64,000 bases of DNA, from the sequence record MN850621.1; one strand, 5' to 3'. Shown piece after piece: positions 12,669 to 64,000 of the stretch. How positions within the stretch are numbered: the stretch's first letter is position 1; the number at the start of each line of letters is the position of its first letter. A program made the position numbers and the translations under genes. The notes under the pieces are model-generated. The model saw nothing but the letters and a program-made list of their open reading frames with translations. It had not been told where the DNA came from and did no database searches. Source of the stretch: Escherichia phage dhabil.

Positions 12669-12681
<13 letters not shown>
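11809..12681 (-). CDS. td: Thymidylate synthase
   Basis: 290 aa; active-site region PPCHCFYQF; continuous ORF, no intron or homing-endonuclease insert. Confidence 0.9.
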
Positions 12682-27100: not shown

Positions 27101-28035
27101 TAAGACCTTTCTCTATTAATATGGCTGATGGTCGCGTTGGTATGAACCACGGTCTGAATATTACTGGTGGCGGATTAAACGTTACAGGTGGTAATACAAA
27201 CCTTGGTAATATTACCTCTCGTGTAGTTTCTTCTGCACGTTCACCTGCAGGCTGGGCTGATAACTCAGATGCAATGAAACCTAAAATCACCTTTATGGCA
27301 GACCATGGTGATTTATCCAATTCAGGTAGTTATTATCCTATTGTCGGAGCGTGGAGTAACTATGGTTCAGCAGGTTATCGTCAGACCTTTGAGTTTGGTT
27401 GGGTTGGTTCTGGTACCACAGCTGGATGGCGTGATGGTATTATTCGTATACGTGGCGACAATGCTAATGGCCAACAAGCAAGATGGCGCTTTGTAATGGA
27501 CGGTACTTTAGAGTGTCCAGGTAAAGTACTGCTACCACAAACAAGTGCCTTCGGTATTAACACAATAAACGGGTTTGGTGGTAACTCACTTGTAATTGGG
27601 GATAGCGATACTGGTTTTAGACAAGTTGGTGACGGTCTTTTAGAAGTTTGGACTAATGCTTCTCGCCGTATGCGATTCCAAGGTGGTGACACTTATTCAG
27701 ATATGAATATAAATGCTCCAAACGTTTATATTCGTTCTGATATTCGTTTGAAATCAAACTTCAAACCAATTGAAAACGCTCTTGAAAAGGTTGAACAGCT
27801 TGATGGTTTAATCTATGATAAAGCTGATTATATTGGTGGAGAGGTTGTTCACACTGAAGCAGGTGTTATTGCACAGAAATTGAATGAAGTATTACCTGAA
27901 GCTATTCGTGAAGTTGAAGATATCAAAGGTAATAAAGTTCTGACAGTTTCTACTCAGGCACAAGTTGCTCTATTAATTGAAGCAGTTAAAACTCTGTCGG
28001 CTAAAGTAAAAGAACTTGAAGCTAAGTTAAACTAA
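24169..28035 (+). CDS. 37: Long tail fiber distal subunit gp37, with C-terminal intramolecular-chaperone-like segment
   Basis: 1288 aa; follows gene 36; last 99 aa begin with SDIRLK and are helix-rich. Confidence 0.85.
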   Translation: MATLKSIQFKRSKIAGAKPTAAQLDEGELAINLRDRTIFTKSDQGQIIDLGFAKGGQVDGDVNINGTLNLNGELVQTGTAGMRTEGSITAPVFRASKGSFYSRASNDTSNAHYWFENANGTERGVLYAKPQLENEGVITMRVRQGTAAGAQNSEFHFISNDGGIFQARKLAALTSISTPTISVNLVNHDSKTFGQYDSQSLVNYVYPGTGETNGVNYLRKVRAKSGGTMWHELCTAQLGQADEMSWWTGNTPQSKQYGVRNDGRLIGRNSLALGTMTTDFPSSDYGNTGAMGDKYLVLGDTATGLKYIKQGNFDLVGGGYSVASITTDGFRGTSKTIFGRSNDQGLTWLLPGQNSSMVSIRTEIDGNNSGDGQTHLGYNSNGKLYHYFRGTGRVAISMAEGMIIEPGILNIKTGVNELNLRADGTVSTTQRLMVNNGLVLNANNNTSALALTAPTGVDGTKTINWDAGTRNGQNKNTVTMKAWGNSFNAGGGNRETVFEVSDSQGYYFYGQRTNPASGETVGPINFKFNGSVETGHFSSLGNISASGTGSFGGNVTMTNGLFVQGGASISGQVKMGGTADALRIWNAEYGLIFRRSETGSSASFHLIPTLQNAGENGGISDLRPLSINLANGTVIMGNKSTGGPLFTVDNVSKFVQTDCRLRVNMDSDGIVLNASSQAASNFIQGRKADVTKWYLGIGDGGNVVRLHNYTYSHGIALNSDTVDITKPLKIGSDIRIGTDGNITGSSTLDNFKNLNSTLDHKVNMGGWSGGATTGWYKFATVEIPQSTGTVSFKIFGGSGFNFKSYGQASIAEIILRTGNNNPKGLNATLWNRTSEAISQIASVNTSEDIYDIYVYLGGYSNSLVVEYTCSSNSKVTVVGMDSGIQPLVETLPEGHIVGKSVRMLNNIDGMFAAGESDIVTRGEYVTNNQKGMRIKSKGNDLDSNAALLRNDGGSFYILATDKNTTEKPDAANGDWNGLRPFSINMADGRVGMNHGLNITGGGLNVTGGNTNLGNITSRVVSSARSPAGWADNSDAMKPKITFMADHGDLSNSGSYYPIVGAWSNYGSAGYRQTFEFGWVGSGTTAGWRDGIIRIRGDNANGQQARWRFVMDGTLECPGKVLLPQTSAFGINTINGFGGNSLVIGDSDTGFRQVGDGLLEVWTNASRRMRFQGGDTYSDMNINAPNVYIRSDIRLKSNFKPIENALEKVEQLDGLIYDKADYIGGEVVHTEAGVIAQKLNEVLPEAIREVEDIKGNKVLTVSTQAQVALLIEAVKTLSAKVKELEAKLN

Positions 28036-41575: not shown

Positions 41576-43393
41576 TTACGACATCCAGGCCTTACGGAGT
41601 TGAGGGTCGTTCCCGAGGAGCATTTCGAACTGTTCTTTCCAATCTTCAGGCAATTGAACTACATCAAATTTAGGGTCTTGAATCATTCGACGGTATTCAG
41701 CTTTCTCAAGAGAACCTAAACCTTTAATATATCGAATAGAATGTTTCGGTAGAGAGTCCTTGGCTTTGGTATAACTAGGAACATCATAAAACCATTCTTG
41801 TTCTTTACCGACCTGGGCAATAATCACCGGAGTTTTACAGAATCTCACTCGACCTTGTTCGAACAATTCAGGCCATTGACTAAAGAAGGCTAGCAATGAT
41901 GGATAAATCGAACCAGTACCATCCACATCAGCATCGGTCATAATGGCGATATTACGATAGTTGGTTTTATCTGCAGGTTCGCCAATAACCAATCCAGTGA
42001 TTGCACAGATATCAAATAGTTCCTTATTCTTCATGATATCTGTTGCTGTCATTCCCCAGGTATTCATAACCTTACCACGTAATGGATAACCACCTTGAAG
42101 GTCTTTATTACGGACTTCAATGAAAGGACCCATAGCGGAATCACCTTCAGTCAAGAACAGGGTTGTATCGGCATCTTTACCGTATAAGTTAGCTTTAATA
42201 TGCTTATGGACCTTGGCTTTAGAAGCTTTCTTAGCAGCTTTAGTTTCAGCAGCCTTTTCAGCTGCTAATTTACGTGCTAAAGCAGCTTCGACGATAGGCA
42301 TAATAAGCCCTTCGTTTTTAAGAATATACTGTGAGATTTTCTTTGCATCAATTTGAATATGATTACGAATTTCACCGAATGGTGACGTCAAACGCTCTTT
42401 AGTCTGGGAATCAAAACGCATATTACTCATATCACGAATGAACATTACCATCGTAAGGCATTCTTTAACACGAGCCTTTGTTACTTCAATTCCACGATAT
42501 TTCTTTTTAATACCAGGCAGAAGGTGCTCACAAATATCATCGAATACACATTCAACGTGGTGACCACCATTCTTAGTGTGGATATTGTTTACATAAGTCA
42601 GTTGACGGAAACCATCTGGAGATGTAGTAAATGCCATTGAGACATTATCGGTTTCTTGAATTACTACATCTTTACCAAATTGATTAGCATACTTTTTAAA
42701 GTTACCATCTACTTTTTTACCATTAAAAGTAAATTGGATACTAGGATAAATTACAGCTAGGGTTTTAAGACGATCTAAAGTAATATCCAGATAAATTTGG
42801 GTCAAACTATTTTCTTCGAAATGGTTAAAGTCTGGAGTGAATATAACCGAAGTGCCTTTATCTTTGGATTTCTTAGTAGTCCAACCTTTGTTTTCCATTC
42901 CGTTAGAACAGTTAACAGTAATCTCATTCTCACCATCAGAGGTGATGCCTGTGAACAAAACGGAGAAGATATTAGTTAAACTACTACCGACACCATTCAT
43001 GCCACCTGTCTTACGCTCTGCGTCATCTCCAAAGTTACCACCAGCCTTTGGAATAGTCCATGCAGCTACAGGACCTGGAATTTGTTCACCGTTTTGGTCA
43101 GTAACCATTGCTTGTGGAATACCACGGCCATTATCAGAAACTGAAACCTGATTATTCTTAATTCGGACATCAATTTTGTTTGCGAATTTAAAATTAGTAC
43201 GAATAGCTTCATCGACAGAGTTATCAATGATTTCATCAATTAATTTAACTAGCCCTGGAACATAGTTCACCTGTGTAAAATTACCGAACAGGAATCGACC
43301 ATGGGCTTCATTAGCACTAGAGCCAATATACATCCCACTACGTTTTTTGATATGTTCAATGTCGGACAGTACTTTAATTTCATTCTTAATCAT
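41576..43393 (-). CDS. 39: DNA topoisomerase II large subunit (GyrB-like ATPase plus Toprim), single unsplit gene
   Basis: 605 aa continuous ORF with GHKL ATPase N-terminus and Toprim region. Confidence 0.85.
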   Translation of the reverse strand: MIKNEIKVLSDIEHIKKRSGMYIGSSANEAHGRFLFGNFTQVNYVPGLVKLIDEIIDNSVDEAIRTNFKFANKIDVRIKNNQVSVSDNGRGIPQAMVTDQNGEQIPGPVAAWTIPKAGGNFGDDAERKTGGMNGVGSSLTNIFSVLFTGITSDGENEITVNCSNGMENKGWTTKKSKDKGTSVIFTPDFNHFEENSLTQIYLDITLDRLKTLAVIYPSIQFTFNGKKVDGNFKKYANQFGKDVVIQETDNVSMAFTTSPDGFRQLTYVNNIHTKNGGHHVECVFDDICEHLLPGIKKKYRGIEVTKARVKECLTMVMFIRDMSNMRFDSQTKERLTSPFGEIRNHIQIDAKKISQYILKNEGLIMPIVEAALARKLAAEKAAETKAAKKASKAKVHKHIKANLYGKDADTTLFLTEGDSAMGPFIEVRNKDLQGGYPLRGKVMNTWGMTATDIMKNKELFDICAITGLVIGEPADKTNYRNIAIMTDADVDGTGSIYPSLLAFFSQWPELFEQGRVRFCKTPVIIAQVGKEQEWFYDVPSYTKAKDSLPKHSIRYIKGLGSLEKAEYRRMIQDPKFDVVQLPEDWKEQFEMLLGNDPQLRKAWMS

Positions 43394-53261: not shown

Positions 53262-53393
53262 TTACTTTGAATTCGCCAAAGCTTCAATGATTTCTCTGTC
53301 TATTTCTTTAGTTATTTCGTTACGTAATAAAATAGCGGCCGAAGCCCTTTTCTTATTCAACTTTTTGAGTTGACGTTTATTTAAACGAGGCAT
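53262..53393 (-). CDS. Small basic protein (43 aa), not in ORF track
   Basis: MPRLNKRQLKKLNKKRASAAILLRNEITKEIDREIIEALANSK; ATG overlaps the gene 56 stop (TAATG); low confidence. Confidence 0.3.
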   Translation of the reverse strand: MPRLNKRQLKKLNKKRASAAILLRNEITKEIDREIIEALANSK

Positions 53394-53914
53394 TAATAAC
53401 CTCGGTCTTGACGAGCAAAGTTCTCGGCATTTTTCAGATAATACAGTTTAAAGATTTCTTCAGCGGTCAGTCCAAGACCCTGGAACATATTAAGAACAAA
53501 GTGCAGAATATCAATCATCTCGAATTTGATTTCGAGCTGGTCTTCAGGAGACAACTCGTCAATACGACGATTACGGAATTCAGCATGTTGGGCTTTCCAA
53601 GGCTTCCACACACTAGAGGCAGCTTTTTCGCCATTACTCATACCGCCAAGAGAAGTCAGCAGTTCACGGAATTCATCATCAATATAATCTTTCTGGTTGC
53701 GAAGCCAATCAACAACTTGACCTGCTGTAGCTAGTTCATCAGGATTGGTGTTGAATTCCGATTTTTCAGTGGCCAGACGAACCTGTAATGATTTCTGCAT
53801 ATCAAGCATAACTTGCAGAGGGTCTTTATCTTCGTGAATCAGAGCATTAAAATAAGCTTCTTCAGCTTTATCAGCACCAGCAATAAGTTGAGAACATTCA
53901 TTAAAATGAGCCAT
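53393..53914 (-). CDS. 56: dCTP pyrophosphatase gp56 (dCTPase/dUTPase, MazG-like)
   Basis: 173 aa helical ORF between soc and primase, as T4 gene 56; assignment by position and size, moderate. Confidence 0.7.
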   Translation of the reverse strand: MAHFNECSQLIAGADKAEEAYFNALIHEDKDPLQVMLDMQKSLQVRLATEKSEFNTNPDELATAGQVVDWLRNQKDYIDDEFRELLTSLGGMSNGEKAASSVWKPWKAQHAEFRNRRIDELSPEDQLEIKFEMIDILHFVLNMFQGLGLTAEEIFKLYYLKNAENFARQDRGY

Positions 53915-54005
53915 TATATTTTTCCTTTTTCAATTCATTAATAAGTTAGATAATTATAAACTGTTAGACTAAAGCGAATAAATATTAATTTAACAGGAGG
54001 ATAAC

Positions 54006-54206
54006 ATGGGCAGTATTTTTTACCAAATCTGGAAATTGGCAGAAAAGAAAGACAAGAAAATGATGTTAGGTTTTCTTGCGCTAGACGTATTCCTTTGGAA
54101 TCTTCTAGTAGTCCCTGTAGCCGCTAGCCAAGGGGTAATTTTACCAGCGGTTACAATGGAACACGTGTTAAGCATAATTGGATTCTTTAGCGGAGTTCCT
54201 GTCTAA
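54006..54206 (+). CDS. Small membrane protein (66 aa), antisense to its neighbours
   Basis: Consensus AGGAGG 6 nt upstream of ATG; two hydrophobic segments; only plus-strand ORF with a strong ribosome-binding site in this minus-strand region. Confidence 0.45.
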   Translation: MGSIFYQIWKLAEKKDKKMMLGFLALDVFLWNLLVVPVAASQGVILPAVTMEHVLSIIGFFSGVPV

Positions 54207-55231
54207 ATTTTAGAATATTTTGAAAGCCTCATTTTTGCCATTAACCCTTGGGCTATATTAGCTTTCATATATGCCAATACATCATTTATATCAGCTTTAT
54301 CTTTCATAACCATATCATTTATATCTTTAGAAGGCCACGGAGCCTTGTCCCAGAATAGAACCCTTTCGCCAGCATCAACTAGGCGTTGCATACGCTTAAT
54401 TGTGTCAGGATGACGGGGTTCATTGTCCATTACCCACGCTCTTGTTTCTTTACATGGAACTACTGATAAGTCTAATGACCCACCAGTAATTGCTATGGCA
54501 TTAGGGACAAATAAAGAATCAATAGGACCTTCCATTACCCACACCAATTGACGTTCGTCAACTGTATCCATTCCATATATTTTTGTAGCTTGGTCATGAG
54601 CTTTTATTGTAATATATTTTTGTGGAGCATCTTTACGTAAGGCTCGGCCCTGAAAACTTTCTATTTGTTTATCCTTATTGAAAATAGGAATAACCAAACG
54701 AGGCTCAGGCATTTCTTTAGAATAGGTTCCTGGATTAACTGAGTTAACCAATGCAGGCCATTCTTTAGTAAACCATAACCGATTCCATTTATTTTCAGGA
54801 ATGCACCGCAACGTCACATATTTGATAATAGGATGGTCCTTCGGCATTCTATCTAATCGTTCGCAGAAATTAAGCTTTTCAATGACAGGCATCTTAGCTT
54901 TAATTTTTTCAGATATCTCCACCTTAGGTGCAGCTTGTCTCCCGAACGATTGCTCTTTATGTTTCTCAAGAATATATTCCCGATATAAATCAGGTTCGTA
55001 TTCGTATAGGTACTTCTTAATTCCTGCCGAATAATCACAGTTAAAACAGTGTAGCATTACAGAGCCGTCATTGGCCGGATAGGCCCAGAATCGAGCTTTG
55101 TTTTCATCTTTTTGGGAGTCACCACATACACGGCAACGACAGTTTAATTTAAAATCACTACCAGTTACTTGTCTGAATTTAGGTTGGTAATTCAAGGCAC
55201 GTACAGCAAATTCTCTATCGACATATGACAT
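54203..55231 (-). CDS. 61: DNA primase gp61
   Basis: 342 aa; N-terminal zinc ribbon CRCRVCGD...CFNCDY plus Toprim-like core; same length as T4 gp61. Confidence 0.85.
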   Translation of the reverse strand: MSYVDREFAVRALNYQPKFRQVTGSDFKLNCRCRVCGDSQKDENKARFWAYPANDGSVMLHCFNCDYSAGIKKYLYEYEPDLYREYILEKHKEQSFGRQAAPKVEISEKIKAKMPVIEKLNFCERLDRMPKDHPIIKYVTLRCIPENKWNRLWFTKEWPALVNSVNPGTYSKEMPEPRLVIPIFNKDKQIESFQGRALRKDAPQKYITIKAHDQATKIYGMDTVDERQLVWVMEGPIDSLFVPNAIAITGGSLDLSVVPCKETRAWVMDNEPRHPDTIKRMQRLVDAGERVLFWDKAPWPSKDINDMVMKDKADINDVLAYMKANIAQGLMAKMRLSKYSKI

Positions 55232-55243
55232 TATTTTTCCTTG

Positions 55244-55263
55244 GGCTCTAAATTAATAGAGCC
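55244..55263 (-). other. RNA hairpin upstream of gene 61
   Basis: 7-bp inverted repeat GGCTCTA / TAGAGCC with 6-nt loop, just 5' of the gene 61 Shine-Dalgarno. Confidence 0.3.
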
Positions 55264-55269
55264 ATTATA

Positions 55270-55431
55270 TCATTCGTTTTCGGATTTTTCTTTACGCTTT
55301 TTAGATGGGATTTGTTCAGGCCCTTTGTTGACGACTGCGCCTGAGGTAGTTCCGGAGGCAATATTAGATGGATTTCCATCAGCATCGCCTGCGACCATAT
55401 CTTCGTTCATAACTTCTTTAAAAGATTTCAT
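55270..55431 (-). CDS. Small protein (53 aa), not in ORF track
   Basis: MKSFKEVMNEDMVAGDADGNPSNIASGTTSGAVVNKGPEQIPSKKRKEKSENE; AGGAG Shine-Dalgarno 4 nt upstream. Confidence 0.4.
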   Translation of the reverse strand: MKSFKEVMNEDMVAGDADGNPSNIASGTTSGAVVNKGPEQIPSKKRKEKSENE

Positions 55432-55447
55432 AGGCTCCTGGCCTTAT

Positions 55448-55639
55448 TTATATTACGAAAATAGCTTTATCACCATTTGCATCAGTGACTTCATACGTAT
55501 CTTCGTGGTAAAGTGGAATAATCCAAGTTAAGCCATCACCTGCAATAATATGGATAGCTTCTTGGTCTTTTGATACGATTTCATATTCTTCGAACAGTTC
55601 GAATACAGAAATCTTAGAGCCTGTACACATTGCAGTCAT
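55448..55639 (-). CDS. Hypothetical protein (63 aa)
   Basis: ORF in operon orientation. Confidence 0.45.
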   Translation of the reverse strand: MTAMCTGSKISVFELFEEYEIVSKDQEAIHIIAGDGLTWIIPLYHEDTYEVTDANGDKAIFVI

Positions 55640-55640
55640 A

Positions 55641-56081
55641 TTAACCTCGGTTCATAAAGGCATTAAAAATCTGGTCGTCGATTGAATAAACCGGAGCTTC
55701 CAGAATTTTCAACAGACTGTTTTTGATATACTTGCTAGGGATATCCATATTAACGGCATCATTCAATTCGTTGTCCCGGAGGATATCTTTAAATTCAAAC
55801 CCTTCAAACTCAACCTTGTCAGGAATACCATCAGAGAAAAAATAAACCAATTGGTGCATTGTATTACATGAAAATAATTTAGACTTCACTGCAATAAGTT
55901 CTTCCCAGTGGTTTAATTCTCTATTAAGAAGTTTATGGGCAAATATAATCCTATCATCACTATCAACAAGAAAATAACCTAGGTACTGGTGGTCGTCGCT
56001 CCAAAACATCCTGTATGCTTGTGCATTTGGATTTTTACAACGAAGCTTTTTGATAACTAAATTTCTGTTAATCTTATTCAC
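55641..56081 (-). CDS. Hypothetical protein (146 aa)
   Basis: ORF in operon orientation. Confidence 0.45.
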   Translation of the reverse strand: MNKINRNLVIKKLRCKNPNAQAYRMFWSDDHQYLGYFLVDSDDRIIFAHKLLNRELNHWEELIAVKSKLFSCNTMHQLVYFFSDGIPDKVEFEGFEFKDILRDNELNDAVNMDIPSKYIKNSLLKILEAPVYSIDDQIFNAFMNRG

Positions 56082-56367
56082 CTGTCACCTCTTTAACAAT
56101 ATTTTTGTTATCGAAATTAGCATCACAGTACAGAACATAGTTATACTGCATAACACCACTAGAAGCCAATTGGTCAGATACTTCTTTAACCATATCAGGA
56201 CGGTCGCGTTTAGTGATGTTCATGATATCAGCGTAAATCTGATGTTCAACTGACTCTTGGTCTGCAGTCATAGACCATTCACAAAGGTCTTTATCCAATC
56301 CGGCAGTTACCGGAGCCGTGCCACATGATGCTACTGTAAGGATTGCTGCGATTAATAACTTTTTCAT
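56074..56367 (-). CDS. sp: Spackle periplasmic protein (superinfection exclusion)
   Basis: 97 aa; signal peptide then DKDLCEWSMTADQ and GVMQYNYVLYCD.NF.NKNI blocks matching T4 Sp (gene 61.3) as I recall it. Confidence 0.75.
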   Translation of the reverse strand: MKKLLIAAILTVASCGTAPVTAGLDKDLCEWSMTADQESVEHQIYADIMNITKRDRPDMVKEVSDQLASSGVMQYNYVLYCDANFDNKNIVKEVTGE

Positions 56368-56396
56368 TTTTAACTCCTCATTAGTTGATAAGGCCT

Positions 56397-56426
56397 ATAG
56401 TATCACTACCATAGACCGTTGTAAAC
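56397..56426 (-). promoter_or_regulatory. Early-promoter cassette for sp
   Basis: Minus strand GTTTAC - 18 nt - TACTAT - AGGCCTTATCAACTAATGAGGAG. Confidence 0.5.
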
Positions 56427-56427
56427 T

Positions 56428-56667
56428 TTATTTTAACGAATCTTCTAAATAAATTTTACGGAATTTACGTTTGGTCTGACGAATCTGACGCTTAGTAGGC
56501 TTCACAGGAAATTCGAAGAACTCTACATATTCCTGTTCATAATCATTATGACCTACTGAAAGAACTAGTTCCCAGCTGCTTACGGTGCGTTGGATAAACA
56601 TATTATGTTTACCAAAAGATTTATTCCAAAAAGAGCTAGGGGTTGGCTTCATTAATACAATATTCAT
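56428..56667 (-). CDS. Hypothetical basic protein (79 aa)
   Basis: ORF in operon orientation. Confidence 0.45.
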   Translation of the reverse strand: MNIVLMKPTPSSFWNKSFGKHNMFIQRTVSSWELVLSVGHNDYEQEYVEFFEFPVKPTKRQIRQTKRKFRKIYLEDSLK

Positions 56668-56808
56668 TTATTCCTCGTCTTCGTGTTTATGAGCAATTTC
56701 TTCGTATTCGCTATTGCAGTCTAAACAAGTTGCGTTGTCCCAAGCATCAAATACCGCCTGGTCTTCACATACCGAACAACCACATACTACACATTCAACC
56801 TCTTCCAT
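56668..56808 (-). CDS. Small Cys-rich acidic protein (46 aa), not in ORF track
   Basis: MEEVECVVCGCSVCEDQAVFDAWDNATCLDCNSEYEEIAHKHEDEE; CxxC pairs; abuts dmd. Confidence 0.35.
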   Translation of the reverse strand: MEEVECVVCGCSVCEDQAVFDAWDNATCLDCNSEYEEIAHKHEDEE

Positions 56809-57012
56809 TTAGATTTCCTCAATGCGGGCATCATATTCAAAAACTTTATTGTCATTAACAAAGGCTTTCACCAGTGCATTATTCACTTCTGCATACTGCA
56901 CTGTAACCCATTCAATCATTTTTTGGTCACTAACATCCAGCGCAGTTTCTTTGGTAAACATATTACCGTTTTCAAACCAACCAATAAACACTACGTTCTC
57001 TAATTTATACAT
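56809..57012 (-). CDS. dmd: Dmd antitoxin (discriminator of mRNA degradation)
   Basis: 67 aa; blocks VVFIGWFENGNMFTKE and TVQYAEVNNALVKAFV match T4 Dmd (61.5) as I recall it. Confidence 0.8.
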   Translation of the reverse strand: MYKLENVVFIGWFENGNMFTKETALDVSDQKMIEWVTVQYAEVNNALVKAFVNDNKVFEYDARIEEI

Positions 57013-57330
57013 TTAGATTTCCTCACAGAAGGCCCATTCAGCGTGATAAACCGTAGCGCCTTTGGTATCATTTAAACAAACCACATCTACCGGAGCAATT
57101 ACACGATAAAGACGAGGTTCTCCTCCCACCGAACGAGCAGCTCGTCCAGCATAAATCTTAGCCAAACCAATGTCCTCAGTAAAGAACACACGATTTAGGT
57201 TTTTCTTACGACCAGTTTCAGACAGAACTCCTGTTTCCTCAGGAGGACAAAGCATATTACCAATATTAGCAACACTACAACTTCCATGATAATACACTTT
57301 ATATTCTGCTTTACAGTCGATGGTTTTCAT
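57013..57330 (-). CDS. Hypothetical protein (about 105 aa)
   Basis: ORF track start 57342 is a TTG; ATG at 57330 follows GGAG; first ORF after cassette 57355..57383. Confidence 0.5.
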   Translation of the reverse strand: MKTIDCKAEYKVYYHGSCSVANIGNMLCPPEETGVLSETGRKKNLNRVFFTEDIGLAKIYAGRAARSVGGEPRLYRVIAPVDVVCLNDTKGATVYHAEWAFCEEI

Positions 57331-57354
57331 TTTGTTCTCCAAGTTGATAGGTCT

Positions 57355-57383
57355 ATAGTATCATGCCTACAGGAGAAGTAAAC
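57355..57383 (-). promoter_or_regulatory. Early-promoter cassette
   Basis: Minus strand GTTTAC - 17 nt - TACTAT - AGACCTATCAACTTGGAGAACAAA - ATG. Confidence 0.55.
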
Positions 57384-57392
57384 CCTTAAAAC

Positions 57393-57412
57393 AAAAAAGG
57401 AGCCGAAGCTCC
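57393..57412 (-). terminator. Intrinsic terminator after gene 41
   Basis: GGAGC-CGAA-GCTCC, followed in the minus-strand RNA by UUUUUU. Confidence 0.6.
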
Positions 57413-58852
57413 TTAAAATTTGATAGATGCTGCTAAATCGTCTAAATCGCTTCTATTAACACGCGACTGGCGATTGACCTCTGCTTGGCGGTTCATTTCA
57501 CCTGTAGCCTCACGAACGGTGTTCACTGGACCTGGGTTAGAATCGTCTTCAACTTCATACCAACGCTGGTTTCCTTTCTTAACACCAATCTTAAATTTGT
57601 TGTAGTAGCTCTTATCGCCATAACGAGATTTAAGCTGCTTAACCATCTGCATACCCATCTGAGCAAACTCTTCTGTCTCGACCACACCTAACATGAAGTC
57701 TGCCGTATGTGCAATACCAAAGGATTCAGCAATATCGGCCATATCGATTTCGGCCGCAACATTCGCACCACGAGTAGTCTGGGCTGCAGTCCACAGCAAT
57801 AATTTCTTCTCTACTGCAAGGCCACGTAGTTCTTCGGCAACCATCTTAATCAATCCGTAACTGTTTTCAGAGAAAACTTTCGTACGAGATGAAGCACAGA
57901 TAGCCAAGTAGTCGACGATAACGACCTGTGGGACAAAGTTTTGTTTGAGCTTGTATTCGTTTAATAATGCACGGAATGTATCGGCATTAGCACCACCAGT
58001 AGGGTACTGTTTAATCTTTAAACGACCTAAAGTAGCAGTTGAACGCCACTTATCCATCTTAGCTTTATATTCAGGCCATGAGACGTGACCATCATCAATA
58101 TCATCCAGTGATACATCCAGAAGGTTGGCATCGATACGCTTAGCACATACTTCCTCTGCCATCTCCATGGAGATATAAAGAACATCATAACCGGATTGAA
58201 GGTAATCAGCAGCCAATGAACATAGTCCAAGAGACTTACCTACGTTTGTTCCTGCCAACAATACGTTTTCAGTACCAAACTCAGCGCCACCCTTGGTAAT
58301 CTTATTCAGAATATTAAGACGGAATGGAACCTTACGGGCTTTATCAGAATAACTTTTAAAACGTTCTTCATAGTCATCCATCCAGTCATGGCCTAATTCA
58401 GAATCGAAACAAATCGATAATGCATCGCGCATGATATCCGGAATGGCACCAATACCTGGGAGTTTTCTATTTTGTTGCTCAACCGGAAGGTCGGCATTAG
58501 TTTGAATTTCAATAATTTTTGAAGTGGCATTATACATCGCTGCCTTCTGAACATATTTCTCTGTCTCTTTAACCAACCATTCTTGGTCTTCAGGGCCTGC
58601 ATTCAGAGAATTTAAAAGCTCTTTAGCTCCTTGGTGTTCAACTTCTGAAAGGGTGCTGTTATCTAATGCAATACTCAAAGCATTTTTAGAAGGCACCGCA
58701 TTATATTCATTGACATGTTTTTTTATTTCTTTGAAAAGGGTCTTTGCCGGACCCTGGTCAAAATAAGAATCATTCATATAAGGCCAGACCTTAGTGAAAT
58801 AATCACTATTGCCTAGCAGTTGAGCCAAAATAGTTTCTACCACTTCCACCAC
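57413..58852 (-). CDS. 41: Replicative DNA helicase gp41 (DnaB-like)
   Basis: 479 aa; Walker A GTNVGKS; long colinear similarity to T4 gp41 (YISMEMAEEVCAKRIDANLLDVSLDDIDDGH, LWTAAQ). Confidence 0.9.
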   Translation of the reverse strand: MVEVVETILAQLLGNSDYFTKVWPYMNDSYFDQGPAKTLFKEIKKHVNEYNAVPSKNALSIALDNSTLSEVEHQGAKELLNSLNAGPEDQEWLVKETEKYVQKAAMYNATSKIIEIQTNADLPVEQQNRKLPGIGAIPDIMRDALSICFDSELGHDWMDDYEERFKSYSDKARKVPFRLNILNKITKGGAEFGTENVLLAGTNVGKSLGLCSLAADYLQSGYDVLYISMEMAEEVCAKRIDANLLDVSLDDIDDGHVSWPEYKAKMDKWRSTATLGRLKIKQYPTGGANADTFRALLNEYKLKQNFVPQVVIVDYLAICASSRTKVFSENSYGLIKMVAEELRGLAVEKKLLLWTAAQTTRGANVAAEIDMADIAESFGIAHTADFMLGVVETEEFAQMGMQMVKQLKSRYGDKSYYNKFKIGVKKGNQRWYEVEDDSNPGPVNTVREATGEMNRQAEVNRQSRVNRSDLDDLAASIKF

Positions 58853-59166
58853 CTCTTAGATTTAATTTTATCCAGTTCTTCTTGTATTTGCATTGTAACA
58901 CATTTTTCTACATGAAGCGCTAGCTCTTCTTTTCGGTCTTCGGAAGGAGTTCCGAAATCAACCGACACTTTTCCATCTTTCTCAATAACAATATTCATCA
59001 CATAAATGATGTGAGCAGTGCCATCGGGTAATGTAAGCATAATTTCCTGCTTAACAGAACCCATTGACTTACGGATTATATCTAACGATTTCTCATAATA
59101 ACGAGGGTCACTAGGACCCTCTTCAGTATCTTTAACAAAATTATCTAAATCAGATAAATCAGTCAT
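58837..59166 (-). CDS. 40: Hypothetical protein in the gene 40 position (head assembly)
   Basis: 109-aa ORF between uvsX and 41; positional assignment. Confidence 0.5.
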   Translation of the reverse strand: MTDLSDLDNFVKDTEEGPSDPRYYEKSLDIIRKSMGSVKQEIMLTLPDGTAHIIYVMNIVIEKDGKVSVDFGTPSEDRKEELALHVEKCVTMQIQEELDKIKSKRWWKW

Positions 59167-60331
59167 CTAAATCCATCTCTTCTAAATCGTTTTCGATATC
59201 AGCAGCACTTTGAGCGTCACCACTCAATTTAACTGCAACGTTCTTAGAGACACGAGAGTTAATAAGGTCGTTCACGGCATCATCGACTTCTTTAATAGAA
59301 TTAATTGCACCAAGCTTATACTTATTCTCGATTGCTTCACGGAACGGGGCATGTTTAAACAGCGGTCCCCAGAACTCGACACAATCGGTAGCTTTAGCAC
59401 GCCATGATTTTTCTTCTTGAACCATTTCACCTGTAGTTTCGTCAAGGAATGCACGATTATACCAACCAGCTTTAGGTTTCACGACAAAGCCAATATCAGT
59501 AGCCATTTCAAGCAGACCACTAAACGGGTCGATACCACCTTCAAAGTTCACAGTAATTGGGAACGTTGATTTCTCTTTAACAGTACGAGATTTTTCGGCC
59601 TTCAGGGTGAAGTCATAACCAGTGAGCTCAGTACCATCTTTAACCTGACGTTTAGAGATAAAGAATACGGTAGAAGCAGAGTACAGAATACCAGTACCAC
59701 CACCCATAATCTCTTTAGGATACATTCCACCAATTTCCATAGCCGTATGGTTAATTGCTACGCAAGGAATGTCCTTGATAGTCAAATAAGGTGTTACGAT
59801 ACGGAACAGAGATTTCAGAGACTTAGCACGAGTCATATCACCTACAACTTTCTCGTTCAAAGCATCTTCGGTTTCTTTCTTAGAAGCGGTGTTACCGATG
59901 GAGTCGATAAAGATAATAACCTTTTCACCACGAGTAATTTCTTCCAATTGGTTGGTCATGTCAACCTTCAGTTGTTCGACTGACTGGATTGGCGTATGAA
60001 CCACACGTTCCAGGTCAACACCCATTGAACGGAAATAAGATTCTGAAGCACCGAACTCAGAGTCATAGAACAAGCAAATTGCGTCTGGATATTTCTTCAT
60101 ATATGCCGCAACCATAGTTAATCCAAACAACGTTTTAAAGTGTTTAGACGGTGCAGCAAAGATTGTCAAACCTGATTGTAAGCCTGCATTCAACGCACCA
60201 CCCAATGCAATATTAAGCATAGGAATACGAGTAGGAACTTCGTCACGACCATTAAACAATTTAGATTTGGTCAGATCGGCAGTCATTTTAGAAGTAGAAG
60301 CTTTAATCAAACGGGATTTTAAATCGGACAT
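59159..60331 (-). CDS. uvsX: UvsX recombinase (RecA-like)
   Basis: 390 aa; RecA-fold ATPase with Walker A AAPSKHFKT; colinear with T4 UvsX. Confidence 0.9.
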   Translation of the reverse strand: MSDLKSRLIKASTSKMTADLTKSKLFNGRDEVPTRIPMLNIALGGALNAGLQSGLTIFAAPSKHFKTLFGLTMVAAYMKKYPDAICLFYDSEFGASESYFRSMGVDLERVVHTPIQSVEQLKVDMTNQLEEITRGEKVIIFIDSIGNTASKKETEDALNEKVVGDMTRAKSLKSLFRIVTPYLTIKDIPCVAINHTAMEIGGMYPKEIMGGGTGILYSASTVFFISKRQVKDGTELTGYDFTLKAEKSRTVKEKSTFPITVNFEGGIDPFSGLLEMATDIGFVVKPKAGWYNRAFLDETTGEMVQEEKSWRAKATDCVEFWGPLFKHAPFREAIENKYKLGAINSIKEVDDAVNDLINSRVSKNVAVKLSGDAQSAADIENDLEEMDLDD

Positions 60332-60384
60332 TATATTTTTCCATAGGCACCATTATATTTTTCTCACGTTTTTAAGATAGGGTA

Positions 60385-60409
60385 ATTATATCACTTCACA
60401 GCTATAGCA
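60385..60409 (-). promoter_or_regulatory. Candidate MotA-dependent middle promoter for uvsX
   Basis: Minus strand TGCTATA (MotA-box-like) - 12 nt - TATAAT, about 55 nt upstream of the uvsX ATG. Confidence 0.35.
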
Positions 60410-60541
60410 TTACTTAATTCCTCGGTTGATAGCCTTATCGACTATCTTCCGAACTTCTCGTTTCTCGAGCCAGCATAATACTAGAAGGGCTCCGAAAGAG
60501 AATAATAACAAACCTATAAAAAGCAATAGAGGACCTAGCAT
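60410..60541 (-). CDS. Small membrane peptide (43 aa), not in ORF track
   Basis: MLGPLLLFIGLLLFSFGALLVLCWLEKREVRKIVDKAINRGIK; ATG overlaps the stop of the 297-aa ORF. Confidence 0.35.
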   Translation of the reverse strand: MLGPLLLFIGLLLFSFGALLVLCWLEKREVRKIVDKAINRGIK

Positions 60542-61428
60542 ACTACGTCCTCATAACGTGGCATTTCGTACTCAGAATGAATATGGGCACCGAAATAAAT
60601 GAATTCAGCCAGACCAGGATGGAATACTAAACCTGGGTTCTCATGATAAATGATATGTGGTCTTGATTTCAGAATCTGATAATATTCAACCTTACTCGGT
60701 TTGAATTTAACAATCTCTACATCAGGACGATAGTCTTCACGCTTAAATGAATCATTCGGGTCGGTGATATAAAGACGAGCACCTTCAGCGGCAGCTTGGT
60801 CTACAACTCTTTCGAATTGATAGCACTTATCCGAAATACGGAATGGATGGAAAATACCATCAATTTTAATAGGCGCTAGACCATCAGAGTAACGCTCAAT
60901 TACTGCAGGATTAATTACCTTTTGGTCTACAAAAATCTTATCAGAGGATGCACCTCGTGACACCAGGACGTCTTTCTGGCATTGATTCAGGACTGTAGTA
61001 TAAAGTGAACGTTCAACTGAAGCCACATCAATATCAATGAACTCATCGATATAATAACGAGGAACTTCAGGGTCCATTGTGATATTAAAGTTGAATTGTA
61101 CAGTATGAGCACCATCATAACCGGTGATATCGGTTACCAGTCCTGAGCAATCATAGTATTCGATTAGTGAATCGACTACAAACTCATTTTCGGACCAGAA
61201 ATGTTTACGGGTTTCATAAGCATTTTCTTTATACCAAAGTGGTACGAAATTCAGTTCTGGGAATAATTCAATGCATTCTTTGATATCGCTCGAATTTCTA
61301 GGATAAGCCAGATAATCACCTGGACGAGCACGATTTAAATGGAGTTGAAAATTACCGTCCTTAAGGACGGCATATTCACCTGTTTCGTAACTACGCATAC
61401 TGAAAATAGGAACGATAAACAAACTCAT
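60535..61428 (-). CDS. Hypothetical protein (297 aa) in the beta-glucosyltransferase slot
   Basis: ORF between uvsX and gene 42 where T4 carries bgt; no similarity to T4 beta-gt recognisable by eye. Confidence 0.55.
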   Translation of the reverse strand: MSLFIVPIFSMRSYETGEYAVLKDGNFQLHLNRARPGDYLAYPRNSSDIKECIELFPELNFVPLWYKENAYETRKHFWSENEFVVDSLIEYYDCSGLVTDITGYDGAHTVQFNFNITMDPEVPRYYIDEFIDIDVASVERSLYTTVLNQCQKDVLVSRGASSDKIFVDQKVINPAVIERYSDGLAPIKIDGIFHPFRISDKCYQFERVVDQAAAEGARLYITDPNDSFKREDYRPDVEIVKFKPSKVEYYQILKSRPHIIYHENPGLVFHPGLAEFIYFGAHIHSEYEMPRYEDVVC

Positions 61429-62123
61429 TTCAGGAAACCTCGGACGTAGTCAAAATCACGTTCAAACACGTGTGCACTTACCATGGTGTGGGAATACGTA
61501 CCTAAACCGACACCACACTGTTCGGCAATAAATGCCATCAGTTTACCCTGCAGATAGAAATCCAGCTGCATAACAACAGCGCAGTTTTGTGAACGCATAT
61601 GGGTATGTGCGTACAAACGACCATCACGAATATAATACGTTACTGAATCGGTGCACGGGTATTCTAAGGATTCGTCAGAATCAAGGAGGGCTTGGTCTTG
61701 TTCTTGGAGAATCTGGAACACAACTCTTCGCGAGTTAGCCTTTTCTTTAAGCTCTTTAAGTAGGGCTGGGAGCTGGGCCACAATTCGAGGTCCATAGAAA
61801 GTGTTGAAGTTTGCAGGCAATACGTCACTTTTCGGCTTATCAATGAACTTAGCAACATTAGGGTATTCCTTAAATGCTTCGGCAGCGTCAGTACCACCAG
61901 AAATCATAAATTTCCAAAAGGATTCGGCATATTCATAACTGATACGATTGATACGTGGGTCGGTGAATTTATAGGTGCTGGCATCCAGTACTTCTACTGA
62001 AGCAGAACCAATTTCATAACAGCGTCCGATACGAGAATCAACTGCAAACTGTGGAGCTTCCAGGATTTCTTCGTTCATTTGTTTAAATGCGTTTTCAAAA
62101 CTAACAGCGGTAATGTGTTTCAT
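61425..62123 (-). CDS. 42: Deoxynucleotide hydroxymethylase (gene 42 family, thymidylate-synthase fold)
   Basis: 232 aa; block EYPCTDSVTYYIRDGRLYAHTHMRSQNCAVVMQLDF aligns with the T4 gp42 active-site region FMCTNTVQYLIRD...NMRSNDVVFGF; otherwise diverged. Confidence 0.7.
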   Translation of the reverse strand: MKHITAVSFENAFKQMNEEILEAPQFAVDSRIGRCYEIGSASVEVLDASTYKFTDPRINRISYEYAESFWKFMISGGTDAAEAFKEYPNVAKFIDKPKSDVLPANFNTFYGPRIVAQLPALLKELKEKANSRRVVFQILQEQDQALLDSDESLEYPCTDSVTYYIRDGRLYAHTHMRSQNCAVVMQLDFYLQGKLMAFIAEQCGVGLGTYSHTMVSAHVFERDFDYVRGFLK

Positions 62124-62656
62124 TTATTCACCTTATTTTCAATATATTCGTTCAGACGTTTTAATTCTACCATATCAACATTAAGCAAATTATTATGACC
62201 GTCATGATTTAAGATTTTAAACACGTTTTCAAAACATGTTTCGTATTGCTGGATAGTTAGGTTGAACTCATCTTTGGTTAATTTAATAAGGTCATCTTCG
62301 AAGTCTTCGTCTAATGGGTTGCGAGTTAAAATAACCTCGATAACGTTAAATTCAGATTTAAACCCTTTCCAATCTTCCAGTTCTACATAAGGGTCCATTT
62401 CACCACGAAGGAATCCTGAGTAAACAATATTACTTGGATAACCACGGTCAAGGATATAAACGAAATTAGGGTCTAAAAACTTATACAGAGTTTCAACTAA
62501 AGCCTTATCGTTATCAGTTCCTAATGAAATACACTTGCCATTAATCTTTTTAGGAAAATCAATAAGGCGGTATTTCTTATTGGATAACAGATTTTTAATT
62601 AAAGTGGACTTCCCGGAATTATCCGGGCCGTCTATAACAATGATTTTTGGATTCAT
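62120..62656 (-). CDS. P-loop nucleoside/nucleotide kinase-like protein
   Basis: 178 aa; Walker A GPDNSGKST and a DRG(Y) element reminiscent of thymidylate-kinase-family enzymes. Confidence 0.6.
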   Translation of the reverse strand: MNPKIIVIDGPDNSGKSTLIKNLLSNKKYRLIDFPKKINGKCISLGTDNDKALVETLYKFLDPNFVYILDRGYPSNIVYSGFLRGEMDPYVELEDWKGFKSEFNVIEVILTRNPLDEDFEDDLIKLTKDEFNLTIQQYETCFENVFKILNHDGHNNLLNVDMVELKRLNEYIENKVNK

Positions 62657-63051
62657 GGATGATAGGCCTTATAACTATCAAGAGTTCCTTCACGAACCAA
62701 TTCTTTAAAGTGGTCAGGACGGATTGCTCGGTCATCGATGATAAAAGTATAACTCGGCTTGTGTGTAAGCAAATTGTGATATTTCAATCCAATTTTTTCA
62801 AGATTCTTAACCAATGCAGGAACTACTTCAACCAAGATTCGACCTGGGCCACATGAAGTCATGCCACGGGCAGTGAACAATGTAATCTCGTACCCTTCAT
62901 CATAAAGCTTATTAATCATGGACACCATTTCGGTGTCCGGTTTAAAGTTCTCATAATCACGGTCATGGTTCCAAATCGTGATTGTGTTATCGATATCAAA
63001 ACATAAATGTGGCTTATTTTCTACTCGATGCGACATTAAATTTTCTTCCAT
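62653..63051 (-). CDS. HAD-superfamily phosphatase-like protein
   Basis: 132 aa; HAD motif I FDIDNTIT, TAR element and IDDR (motif IV-like). Confidence 0.55.
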   Translation of the reverse strand: MEENLMSHRVENKPHLCFDIDNTITIWNHDRDYENFKPDTEMVSMINKLYDEGYEITLFTARGMTSCGPGRILVEVVPALVKNLEKIGLKYHNLLTHKPSYTFIIDDRAIRPDHFKELVREGTLDSYKAYHP

Positions 63052-63950
63052 TGTTTGTGGAGTTCAGTAGAACCTGTAGGTTTATATTTTACACCAGTTT
63101 CCTGGTCAAGCAAAACCCACTTATCAGGACAACGAGTAATAATTTGAGCCGTAATAGGGTCACGAACTTCATCGACAAATTCACCCGTAATAAGCTTACG
63201 CTTACGAGGATGCCGCTTCAGCAGCACACTCAGTTGATACAAACCATTATAATAAGCACCCAGAGCTTTCAGAGGGTTATTCTTAAAGTAACCTGCCAGA
63301 GCCATCCAAATAACGGCAATCCAGAGCTTGTGCTTAAATGTGCACATAGGGATATCGTCTAAAGGCATAACCTTTTCGATATCAACGAATACACGAGTTC
63401 CGTTACGAGTTAATCCACCCCATAGAGGGTCTGAGTTAAATTTATCATAGCCATCGATAGAATAAAGCACCTTAGCTTCATCATAAATCGCAGGGCCTTT
63501 AGAACTATTACCGAAATAACCGCGTGGGTCGATGATTTTAATATCACCTTCGTCCGACAGCATAATATTACTGTAGTGCGGGTCGCCATGAATAAGTTGG
63601 TATGGTTCTTTATGTTCAGACAGAATTTCTAGTGCATGGCGGAGAAGTTTTTCAGGGTCGCCTACTTTGAAATCGTTAACGTGGGTAATGCCTTGTGGAG
63701 CAAAGCCTTCAATCAATCCAGCAATAGAAGCATTACGAATAAGGACCTTGTCCAATACTTCTTTCTTAACATCAGAATACCATTGTTCATCGGACGGATT
63801 ATCGATAGTTCCACCAAATGAACGTAATGCACTAATGACCTTATAAACCATGAGGACTTTAGTTTCTTTGGACATAAAGCGGTAGGCATCTGCCATGGTA
63901 CGACCAAAGATACGTTCCATTTTAATGAATTCGCCTGGAGAAAAGTCCAC
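63036..63950 (-). CDS. APH/choline-kinase-fold phosphotransferase
   Basis: 304 aa; catalytic loop HGDPHYSN (Brenner motif) and IDPRG metal-binding element. Confidence 0.6.
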   Translation of the reverse strand: MDFSPGEFIKMERIFGRTMADAYRFMSKETKVLMVYKVISALRSFGGTIDNPSDEQWYSDVKKEVLDKVLIRNASIAGLIEGFAPQGITHVNDFKVGDPEKLLRHALEILSEHKEPYQLIHGDPHYSNIMLSDEGDIKIIDPRGYFGNSSKGPAIYDEAKVLYSIDGYDKFNSDPLWGGLTRNGTRVFVDIEKVMPLDDIPMCTFKHKLWIAVIWMALAGYFKNNPLKALGAYYNGLYQLSVLLKRHPRKRKLITGEFVDEVRDPITAQIITRCPDKWVLLDQETGVKYKPTGSTELHKQWKKI

Positions 63951-64000
63951 AATACTAGGAACAAATTCAGAATCAATAGAATTATACCAATTGATTTCTT

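Follow-up and report, generated by a model that had tools for sequence, protein, structure and literature searches.

The open reading frame at positions 61425-62123 on the minus strand of the analysed window, a stretch of 64,000 nucleotides from Escherichia phage dhabil (MN850621.1), very probably encodes an FMN- and O2-dependent 5-hydroxy-dCMP synthase (dCMP C5-hydroxylase) with the thymidylate synthase (TS) fold, and not a hydroxymethylase, judging by its sequence. On this reading its distance from T4 gp42 stems from membership of another enzyme subfamily that occupies the equivalent genomic position, rather than from accelerated drift. What has probably changed is the cofactor and the transferred group: a hydroxyl group derived from O2 via flavin, rather than CH2OH from methylene-tetrahydrofolate. 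The finding is real but already explained, because descriptions of this enzyme family and of its occurrence in Dhakaviruses appeared in 2026, with Dhakaviruses named among the carriers of the syntenic gene cluster (Lee et al., NAR 2026, PMC13326640).

The gene, designated dhaeg_217 in MN850609, has an ATG start codon and a TGA stop codon, is preceded by an AAGGTG Shine-Dalgarno sequence 5 nt upstream of the ATG, and encodes a protein of 232 aa. Over the whole window the identity to Escherichia phage dhaeg, a member of Dhakavirus, is 99.9%. Across the Dhakavirus genomes compared, the DNA of which is 92-99% identical to the window, the protein is conserved at 97.8-100%, which marks the reading frame as a genuine gene under constraint. 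Homologues with E < 1e-50 were found in 342 phage records, and the GenBank labels given to this family vary between thymidylate synthase, dCMP hydroxymethylase and hypothetical protein. The Pfam family PF00303 matches only the C-terminal half of the protein. A single-sequence AlphaFold2 model had a mean pLDDT of 38 and was unusable; such a model is unnecessary because the crystal structure 9IQU is 80% identical. A scan for promoters and terminators between 60200 and 64000 gave counts no higher than those in shuffled sequence, and no tRNA or Rfam matches were found in scans of the whole window.

Comparison with characterised enzymes placed the protein among 5-hydroxy-dCMP synthases. With RB69 gp48 it shares 79.7% identity across 231 aa (E = 7e-144), and it matches the PDB entries 9IQU, 9IQC and 9IR2 at E = 2e-125. 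The sequence of 9IQU is that of the phage HY126 enzyme (100% identity) and is 80.1% identical to the window protein; RB69 gp48 and the HY126 5-hydroxy-dCMP synthase, to which all three entries belong, are the subject of Lee et al. (NAR 2026, PMC13326640) and reportedly of He et al. (Nat Chem Biol 2026). The proteins fall into the same length class (232 aa, as against 238 aa for RB69 gp48 and 234 aa for the HY126 enzyme), and all 17 active-site positions compared between the window protein and RB69 gp48 are identical, including C146 and the substitutions D169N, N177D and L143E in the numbering of E. coli ThyA. On the neighbour-joining tree the window protein groups with the D169N sequences of RB69, Ac42, Thanatos-2, phiM9 and PAU, apart from gp42 of T4 and PG7 and from ThyA and Td. 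RB69 gp48 and the HY126 enzyme have been published as 5-hydroxy-dCMP synthases, which have the TS fold and employ flavin and O2 but no folate (PMC13326640). Production of 5hodC in vivo was demonstrated for RB69 gp48 and DLP3 gp80, and nine out of nine further D169N homologues also made 5hodC (Lee et al., NAR 2026, PMC13326640). In characterised enzymes of this class, FMN co-purifies with the protein and 18O from 18O2 enters the product, and, as stated there, the HY126 enzyme was crystallised with a flavin and in vitro reconstitution of its reaction was achieved (PMC13326640). The DNA modification of RB69 was re-determined in the same study as arabinose ether-linked to 5-hydroxycytosine (PMC13326640).

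Particular residues support this placement. The replacement D169N is the diagnostic signature of 5-hydroxy-dCMP synthases (PMC13326640), and in the window protein this position is occupied by Asn180 of the RSQN motif (codon 61584-61586, minus strand), whereas Asp is found there in T4 gp42, PG7 gp42, E. coli ThyA and the Td of this phage. Cys157 (codon 61653-61655, minus strand) is the counterpart of C146, the catalytic nucleophile in E. coli ThyA, and its column is invariant in both alignments examined. Glu154 (codon 61662-61664, minus strand) takes the position of ThyA L143, where an acidic residue is typical of enzymes without a methyl product (PMC13326640). Asp188 (codon 61560-61562, minus strand) stands at the position of ThyA N177, and Asp there is a known determinant of specificity for cytosine, that is, for dCMP (PMC13326640). 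The initial annotation had considered that dCMP and dUMP specificity could not be told apart from sequence, but this residue makes the distinction usefully readable. Two more substitutions accompany D169N (N180), namely W80 to A91 and G173 to V184. In an alignment of 11 sequences W80 and G173 were lost in the D169N sequences only, whereas T4 gp42, PG7 gp42 and BF486P3 retain D, W and G at the positions of ThyA D169, W80 and G173. These three ThyA residues act in folate binding, and their replacement in the window protein is consistent with a changed cofactor.

The relationship to T4 was evaluated by a blastp search with T4 proteins among the ORFs of the window. T4 gp42 (246 aa) matched the 232-aa protein with 24.5% identity over 159 aa (E = 1.8e-8), which is the weakest of all T4 matches in the window and the sole one below 30%, while the other 31 T4 orthologues are 33-81% identical, with values of 66.8% for UvsX, 65.3% for gp41 and 61.2% for gp61. 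These data bear out the initial description of a far-diverged gene 42 homologue, 232 aa long against about 246 in T4, among conserved neighbours, with uvsX, 41 and 61 close to their T4 counterparts. As a yardstick, gp42 of Karamvirus PG7, a true orthologue from another genus, is 69% identical to T4 gp42; likeness at this level is absent in the 232-aa protein. In phmmer searches MilA (52.9 bits) and several ThyA proteins scored above T4 gp42 (24.9 bits). The suggestion that only the active-site neighbourhood is shared with T4 gp42 was right in that the motifs EYPCTDSVTYYIRD and MRSQN are both found in the protein, but the similarity spans its C-terminal two thirds.

The interpretation placed on this divergence, that a hydroxymethylase gene of the modification module evolves faster than the replication core, did not stand. 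The protein is about 80% identical to the RB69 gp48 and HY126 hydroxylases. Accelerated drift of gene 42 was rejected because the 79.7% identity to the RB69 orthologue lies within the 38-94% range of the neighbouring genes, so that the rate of change is ordinary. The related expectation of altered substrate or product specificity proved half correct, since a change of product accompanies the divergence, but no switch between dCMP and dUMP does.

Before 2025 the textbook view would have been that this gene is a true, if fast-evolving, orthologue of T4 gene 42, encoding a folate-dependent enzyme that makes 5hm-dCMP, which is later arabinosylated. This view would account for the location of the gene in the same slot as T4 gene 42, bounded on one flank by uvsX and a transferase gene and on the other by imm and 43, for the catalytic Cys, the Asp at 177 and the acidic residue at 143 in common with T4 gp42, for the listing of JS98-type phages with gene 42 alleles (Petrov et al. 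2010), and for the report of arabinosyl-hmC in RB69 (Thomas et al. 2018). It is nevertheless very unlikely, given an identity to T4 gp42 of 24.5% where PG7 and T4 share 69%, and the loss of D169, W80 and G173, all retained in T4 and PG7 gp42 and in ThyA. Moreover, flavin binding and formation of 5hodC with oxygen from 18O2 are on record for relatives that share about 80% identity with the window protein, and the RB69 DNA proved upon re-determination to carry an arabinosyl ether of 5-hydroxycytosine (PMC13326640). T4 gp42 (PDB 1B5E) and the window protein do have in common the TS fold, a slot beside a DNA sugar transferase gene and the absence of the C-terminal extension, or lid, of ThyA. However, T4 gp42 uses methylene-tetrahydrofolate to add CH2OH, whereas the window protein can be assigned to the flavin/O2 hydroxylase branch from its residues.

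The phage already has a genuine thymidylate synthase, the intron-less Td encoded at 11809-12681 on the minus strand. This enzyme shares 47.6% identity with E. coli ThyA, scores 327 bits against NF002497 (cut-off 327) and 312.6 bits against TIGR03284 (cut-off 108.35) among the NCBIfam models, and retains the folate-type residues W80, D169, G173 and N177. That the 232-aa protein might be a second thymidylate synthase, another dUMP-acting enzyme or an inactive relic can hardly be credited, in spite of the thymidylate synthase label in some GenBank records and the match to PF00303. Its best NCBIfam thymidylate synthase scores, 61.6 bits (cut-off 174.55) and 37.4 bits (cut-off 108.35), are below all of the equivalog cut-offs, which range from 108 to 427 bits, and Asp replaces Asn at ThyA position 177. 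The reading as a relic is weakened by the conservation of the protein in Dhakaviruses (97.8-100%) and by the occurrence of its homologues in 342 phage records. The core residues Y94, R126/R127, C146, R166, S167 and H207 of E. coli ThyA and the phage Td are conserved in the window protein, which is 18% identical to the former and 14% to the latter and differs from ThyA in having Asp for Asn177, Asn for Asp169 and Glu for Leu143. The best-scoring non-hydroxylase structure was that of MilA (PDB 5JNH/5B6D; E = 4e-13, residues 5-226), the CMP 5-hydroxymethylase of mildiomycin biosynthesis. It acts on a cytosine nucleotide, as does the window protein if dCMP is its substrate as assigned, but unlike the latter it is folate-dependent, uses CMP and comprises 325-342 aa.

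The gene context agrees with that of the characterised hydroxylases, and homologues of RB69 gp46:47, gp51 and gp52:53, covering sugar transfer and NDP-sugar synthesis, directly adjoin the hydroxylase gene. The first of them, at 60535-61428 on the minus strand, encodes a putative first DNA arabinosyltransferase of 297 aa whose identity to gp46:47 is 69.8% for one half and 64.6% for the other and which matches phrog_3891; it fills the position of beta-gt in T4, and its start codon overlaps the hydroxylase stop codon in the sequence ATGA. The role of first DNA arabinosyltransferase has been proposed for RB69 gp46:47 (PMC13326640). At 62120-62656 (minus strand) lies a gene for a P-loop nucleotide-kinase-like protein of 178 aa, a homologue of RB69 gp45 (37.9% identity), which matches phrog_761 (thymidylate kinase) and, weakly, (d)CMP/dTMP kinase models. 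Beside it, at 62653-63051 (minus strand; start at 63036 in the dhaeg annotation), is a gene for a HAD-type phosphatase, the homologue of RB69 gp51 (62.4% identity) and HY126 AfhF, with matches to TIGR01689 (capsule biosynthesis phosphatase) and HAD-IIIA. The reaction proposed for gp51/AfhF is the conversion of arabinose-1,5-bisphosphate to arabinose-1-phosphate (PMC13326640). The segment at 63036-64000 (minus strand) covers the C-terminal kinase domain of a homologue of RB69 gp52:53 and HY126 AfhE, a nucleotidyltransferase/kinase whose gene is cut off by the window boundary. The full gene (L001:14640-16310) encodes a bifunctional protein of 557 aa, with the Pfam domains NTP_transferase at residues 3-100 and APH at 346-417, which is 41-44% identical to RB69 gp52 and gp53; the role of RB69 gp52:53 is that of an Ara5P kinase/UDP-arabinose pyrophosphorylase (PMC13326640).

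The genes of this cluster are co-oriented. Of its four junctions in the window, three are 4-nt overlaps (ATGA); at the remaining one the overlap is 1 or 16 nt, according to which start is used. A putative first arabinosyltransferase, a HAD phosphatase and a bifunctional kinase/uridylyltransferase are neighbours of the hydroxylase here, as they are of RB69 gp48 and the HY126 enzyme. A difference concerns the kinase-like gene, which is located beside uvsX in the RB69 cluster but between the hydroxylase and phosphatase genes in the window. Homologues of T4 alpha-gt, beta-gt and T4-type gp42 were found by blastp neither in the window nor in L001 or the selected dhaeg ORFs, so that these genes are probably missing from the remainder of the genome as well, and the a-gt slot of dhaeg contains only a-gt.2 to a-gt.4.

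Based on these homologies, the following pathway may be proposed. The dCTPase/dUTPase gp56, encoded at 53393-53914 on the minus strand and 67.6% identical to T4 gp56 and 94.2% to RB69 gp56, would convert dCTP and dCDP to dCMP and at the same time remove dCTP, as does its T4 counterpart. Cys157 of the hydroxylase would then attack C6 of dCMP, while Asp188 would read or protonate the N3/N4 face of cytosine; a reduced-flavin/O2 species would donate an oxygen atom to the activated C5, and 5-hydroxy-dCMP would be freed once the Cys is eliminated. This chemistry is modelled on thymidylate synthase and flavin monooxygenases; the reports of a bound flavin and of O2 as the oxygen source concern RB69 gp48 and the HY126 enzyme rather than the window protein. 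A dNMP kinase of the phage (dhaeg_114, which lies outside the window), together with the host NDP kinase, could yield 5-hydroxy-dCTP, which gp43 would put into DNA instead of dCTP. The AfhE-like kinase/uridylyltransferase and the AfhF-like phosphatase are predicted to turn arabinose-5-phosphate into UDP-arabinofuranose, and the gp46:47-like transferase would link the arabinose to the 5-hydroxyl by an ether bond. The expected outcome is DNA with O-arabinosylated 5-hydroxycytosine, resistant to restriction enzymes.

The downstream product in Dhakaviruses may differ from that of RB69, because the two clusters are not the same. Homologues of RB69 gp3 (the second transferase), gp49, gp50 and gp55 (arabinose-5-phosphate isomerase) were not found in the window, L001 and 20 selected annotated dhaeg ORFs, and the kinase-like protein and the AfhE-like sugar-activating enzyme are just 38% and 41-44% identical to their RB69 counterparts. 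Phage Thanatos, with a single syntenic transferase, is mono-arabinosylated (PMC13326640). One could accordingly keep the enzyme in the hydroxylase branch and suppose an end product unlike that of RB69, such as a single arabinose, another sugar or unglycosylated 5-hydroxycytosine. As a competing explanation this is highly improbable, since the hydroxylation step stays unchanged and the main explanation is modified rather than replaced; in addition, the homologues of the first transferase (65-70%) and the phosphatase (62%) are well conserved, and the host enzymes KdsD and GutQ are able to supply arabinose-5-phosphate. Within the 5-hydroxy-dCMP synthase reading it is conceivable, albeit doubtful, that Dhakavirus DNA carries an undescribed modification, either strictly mono-arabosylated 5-hydroxycytosine or another sugar on the 5-hydroxyl. 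For the mono-arabosylated candidate, arabinose-5-phosphate would come from the host. Dhakaviruses might possess the leanest hydroxylation/glycosylation module, with one transferase and neither a phage arabinose-5-phosphate isomerase nor a gp50-like protein. Searches of the available literature turned up no biochemical or mass-spectrometry results on Dhakaviruses.

As this gene shows, genomic position and fold together can mislead annotation. The distinction matters because the presence of O-arabosyl-5-hydroxycytosine rather than glucosyl-5-hydroxymethylcytosine decides which restriction, type IV and CRISPR systems are evaded or triggered, and Dhakaviruses are in use as therapeutic coliphages. 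If, as expected, the hydroxylation requires O2, one may also ask how phages of this kind manage DNA modification in the anaerobic gut.

Three-way identities had suggested that the alleles of gp56, gp43 and UvsX co-segregate with the 5hoC pathway, an idea that was rejected for gp56. Some Tequatrovirus gp56 alleles are 81-82% identical to that of dhaeg, those of the 5hoC-type phages PEi20 and Acinetobacter phages just 65-67%, and that of another Dhakavirus, NC-G, 92.5%, a value that does not exceed the one for RB69 (94.2%). The gp56 identities reflect ordinary allele shuffling.

The stretch at 60400-64000 of the window is 99.9% identical to Escherichia phage dhaeg (MN850609; Straboviridae, Tevenvirinae, Dhakavirus) and has 97-99% identity to JS98, JS10 and related phages. 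It contains an ORF at 61425-62123 on the minus strand, with an ATG start, a TGA stop and the sequence AAGGTG 5 nt upstream of the start codon, whose 232-aa product includes the motifs EYPCTDSVTYYIRD and MRSQN. The corresponding dhaeg gene, dhaeg_217, is labelled 'putative thymidylate synthase' in GenBank. The initial annotation had described this ORF as a gene 42 hydroxymethylase diverged from that of T4 far more strongly than its neighbours. T4 and RB69 proteins were used as blastp queries against all window ORFs, and 31 T4 orthologues were found in the window at 33-81% identity; the values were 66.8% for UvsX, 65.3% for gp41, 61.2% for gp61 and 67.6% for gp56. T4 gp42 (246 aa) matched the 232-aa protein with an identity of 24.5% over 159 aligned residues (E = 1.8e-8), whereas a genuine orthologue from another genus, Karamvirus PG7 gp42, is 69% identical to T4 gp42. 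The protein is therefore a clear outlier, and both its divergence and its shorter length were correctly noted.

The Pfam thymidylate synthase domain covers only the C-terminal half of the protein, which falls below every NCBIfam thymidylate synthase cut-off. The phage's own thymidylate synthase, Td, is encoded at 11809-12681 on the minus strand; this 290-aa protein shares 47.6% identity with E. coli ThyA, satisfies the cut-offs of two NCBIfam thymidylate synthase models and is a bona fide Td, its gene lacking the group I intron present in T4 td. A sequence search of the PDB was decisive for the 232-aa protein, with the entries 9IQU, 9IQC and 9IR2 ('thymidylate synthase', 234-238 aa) on top at E = 2e-125, followed by the CMP hydroxymethylase MilA (4e-13) and many ThyA proteins, and with T4 gp42 at just 1.5e-4. 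The sequence in 9IQU matches that of Escherichia phage HY126 with 100% identity and the window protein with 80.1% identity; the window protein shares 79.7% identity with RB69 gp48 across 231 aa. ORF 61425-62123 thus very probably encodes a 5-hydroxy-dCMP synthase. Homologues with E < 1e-50 were found in 342 phage records, and in GenBank the family is variously labelled thymidylate synthase, dCMP hydroxymethylase, deoxycytidylate 5-hydroxymethyltransferase or hypothetical protein.

Signature residues were compared in an alignment of 11 sequences, comprising the window protein, E. coli ThyA, the phage's Td, T4 gp42, PG7 gp42, RB69 gp48 and the homologues from Ac42, Thanatos-2, phiM9, PAU and Bacteroides phage BF486P3. 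The nucleophilic cysteine (ThyA C146) is present in the window protein as C157, as well as in Td and both gp42 proteins. At ThyA L143 the window protein has E154, gp42 Asp and Td Leu, while ThyA N177 is replaced by Asp in the window protein (D188) and in gp42, with Asn retained in Td. The remaining three positions set the window protein apart from both groups: Asp at ThyA D169 is kept in Td and gp42 (RSND) and is N180 in the window protein (RSQN), while W80 and G173, likewise kept in Td and gp42, are replaced by A91 and V184. At all 17 positions compared the window protein agrees with RB69 gp48. In this small sample, W80 and G173 were lost in every case where D169N was present; in thymidylate synthase both residues line the folate site, and their loss would fit a changed cofactor. 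On a neighbour-joining tree the protein is placed among the D169N sequences, separately from the gp42 and ThyA/Td clades.

The reaction itself has been described in relatives. In RB69 and in Acinetobacter phage DLP3, dCMP is converted to 5-hydroxy-dCMP by gp48 and gp80, respectively, with O2 as the oxygen source according to 18O2 labelling and with FMN co-purifying with the enzyme; Asn at the D169 position was proposed as the diagnostic residue, and nine out of nine further D169N homologues made 5-hydroxy-dC (Lee et al., NAR 2026, PMC13326640). The modified base of RB69 is 5-hydroxycytosine carrying arabinose in ether linkage, not arabinosyl-hydroxymethylcytosine, and carriers of the syntenic cluster include Dhakaviruses (Lee et al., PMC13326640). 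As cited in that paper, the HY126 enzyme was crystallised with flavin and its reaction reconstituted in vitro (He et al., Nat Chem Biol 2026). Earlier, JS98-type phages were counted as carriers of a gene 42 allele, as in the initial annotation, and their modification was posed as a question (Petrov et al. 2010); the homologue of the fused RB69 ORF053c/052c in Dhakavirus IME08 was also pointed out (Thomas et al. 2018). The divergence is real and was well spotted, and it is already explained, since the chemistry was worked out in the 2026 papers, in which Dhakaviruses are named.

The replication genes form a mosaic region, spanning 53393-60331 of the window and 17312-26616 of L001, a stretch of the dhaeg genome that overlaps the window's end and runs past it (genes 56, 61, 41, 40, uvsX, 43, regA, 62, 44, 45, rpbA, 46 and 47). 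In three-way comparisons, dhaeg gp56 (94%), UvsX (90.5%), gp43 (84%), RegA (84%) and RpbA (67%) are much nearer to RB69 than to T4, while gp41, gp61, gp40, gp62, gp44, gp45, gp46 and gp47 are more alike between RB69 and T4 (65-85%), with dhaeg as the outlier. The gp56 alleles were tested for an association with modification type (5-hydroxycytosine versus hydroxymethylcytosine phages), and no tracking was found. The hydroxylase, at 79.7% to RB69, lies below gp56, UvsX and gp43 and above gp41 (68%), gp61 (64%) and gp40 (38%). Because this value is within the range of the neighbouring genes, the proposal that the modification module evolves faster than the replication core fails; the distance to T4 gp42 is that of another enzyme subfamily occupying the same slot.

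From 60535 to beyond 64000 all genes lie on the minus strand, with ATGA or TAATG overlaps between consecutive genes. The hydroxylase gene is accompanied by those for a putative first arabinosyltransferase (60535-61428, 297 aa; 65-70% to RB69 gp46:47), a P-loop kinase-like protein (62120-62656, 178 aa; 38% to RB69 gp45), a putative HAD phosphatase (62653-63051, 132 aa; 62% to RB69 gp51) and a putative nucleotidyltransferase and kinase (63036 to past the window end, 557 aa in L001; 41-44% to RB69 gp52:53). The latter two resemble AfhF and AfhE, respectively, HY126 proteins with proposed roles in UDP-arabinose synthesis. The equivalent slot of T4, bounded by uvsX and imm/43, is occupied by segA, beta-gt and gene 42; in the window, uvsX and the modification module have no homing endonuclease gene such as segA between them. 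The gp45 gene of RB69 adjoins uvsX, whereas in the window the kinase-like gene lies between the hydroxylase and phosphatase genes. The kinase-like protein matched models of (d)CMP and dTMP kinases weakly and may act on a nucleotide or on a sugar phosphate. A search of the window, of L001 and of 20 ORFs chosen from the remainder of dhaeg yielded no homologue of T4 alpha-gt or beta-gt, or of RB69 gp3, gp50 or gp55. Where RB69 encodes its arabinose-5-phosphate isomerase gp55, dhaeg has dhaeg_213 (L001 16374-16871, shortly after the window ends); its 166-aa product belongs to phrog_1754, matches no Pfam family and does not detectably resemble gp55. An unannotated, strongly hydrophobic 43-aa ORF (60410-60541, minus strand; MLGPLLLFIGLLLFSFGALLVLCWLEKREVRKIVDKAINRGIK) separates uvsX from the transferase gene; it may encode a small membrane protein or be a chance ORF. 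No tRNA genes or Rfam families were found in the window, and a scan of 60200-64000 revealed no promoter or terminator signals above chance.

A pathway can be proposed on the basis of the residues and homologies observed here. With dCMP supplied by gp56, Cys157 would add at C6 and Asp188 would select cytosine; a flavin/O2 species would then hydroxylate the activated C5, followed by elimination of the cysteine. 5-Hydroxy-dC would enter DNA through the dNMP kinase, the NDP kinase of the host and gp43, and the transferase would attach arabinose to the 5-hydroxyl from UDP-arabinofuranose made by the adjacent enzymes. The O2/flavin step is adopted from reports on relatives about 80% identical, and we infer the detailed chemistry and all points specific to Dhakavirus. 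In the dhaeg stretch L007 (MN850609 122845-127155, outside the window), nrdD/nrdG, the anaerobic ribonucleotide reductase genes located between genes 49 and 55 in T4, are missing by annotation, which is notable given that the cytosine modification of dhaeg would need O2.

Two other genes differ from T4 in their organisation or extent. The topoisomerase large subunit gp39 (41576-43393, minus strand) is a single 605-aa protein, undivided as in RB69, whereas T4 has it in two pieces, gp39 and gp60. Gp37 of the long tail fibre (24169-28035, plus strand) comprises 1288 aa versus 1026 aa in T4, and only about 810 N-terminal residues align, with 52.9% identity; the receptor-binding tip therefore differs from that of T4.
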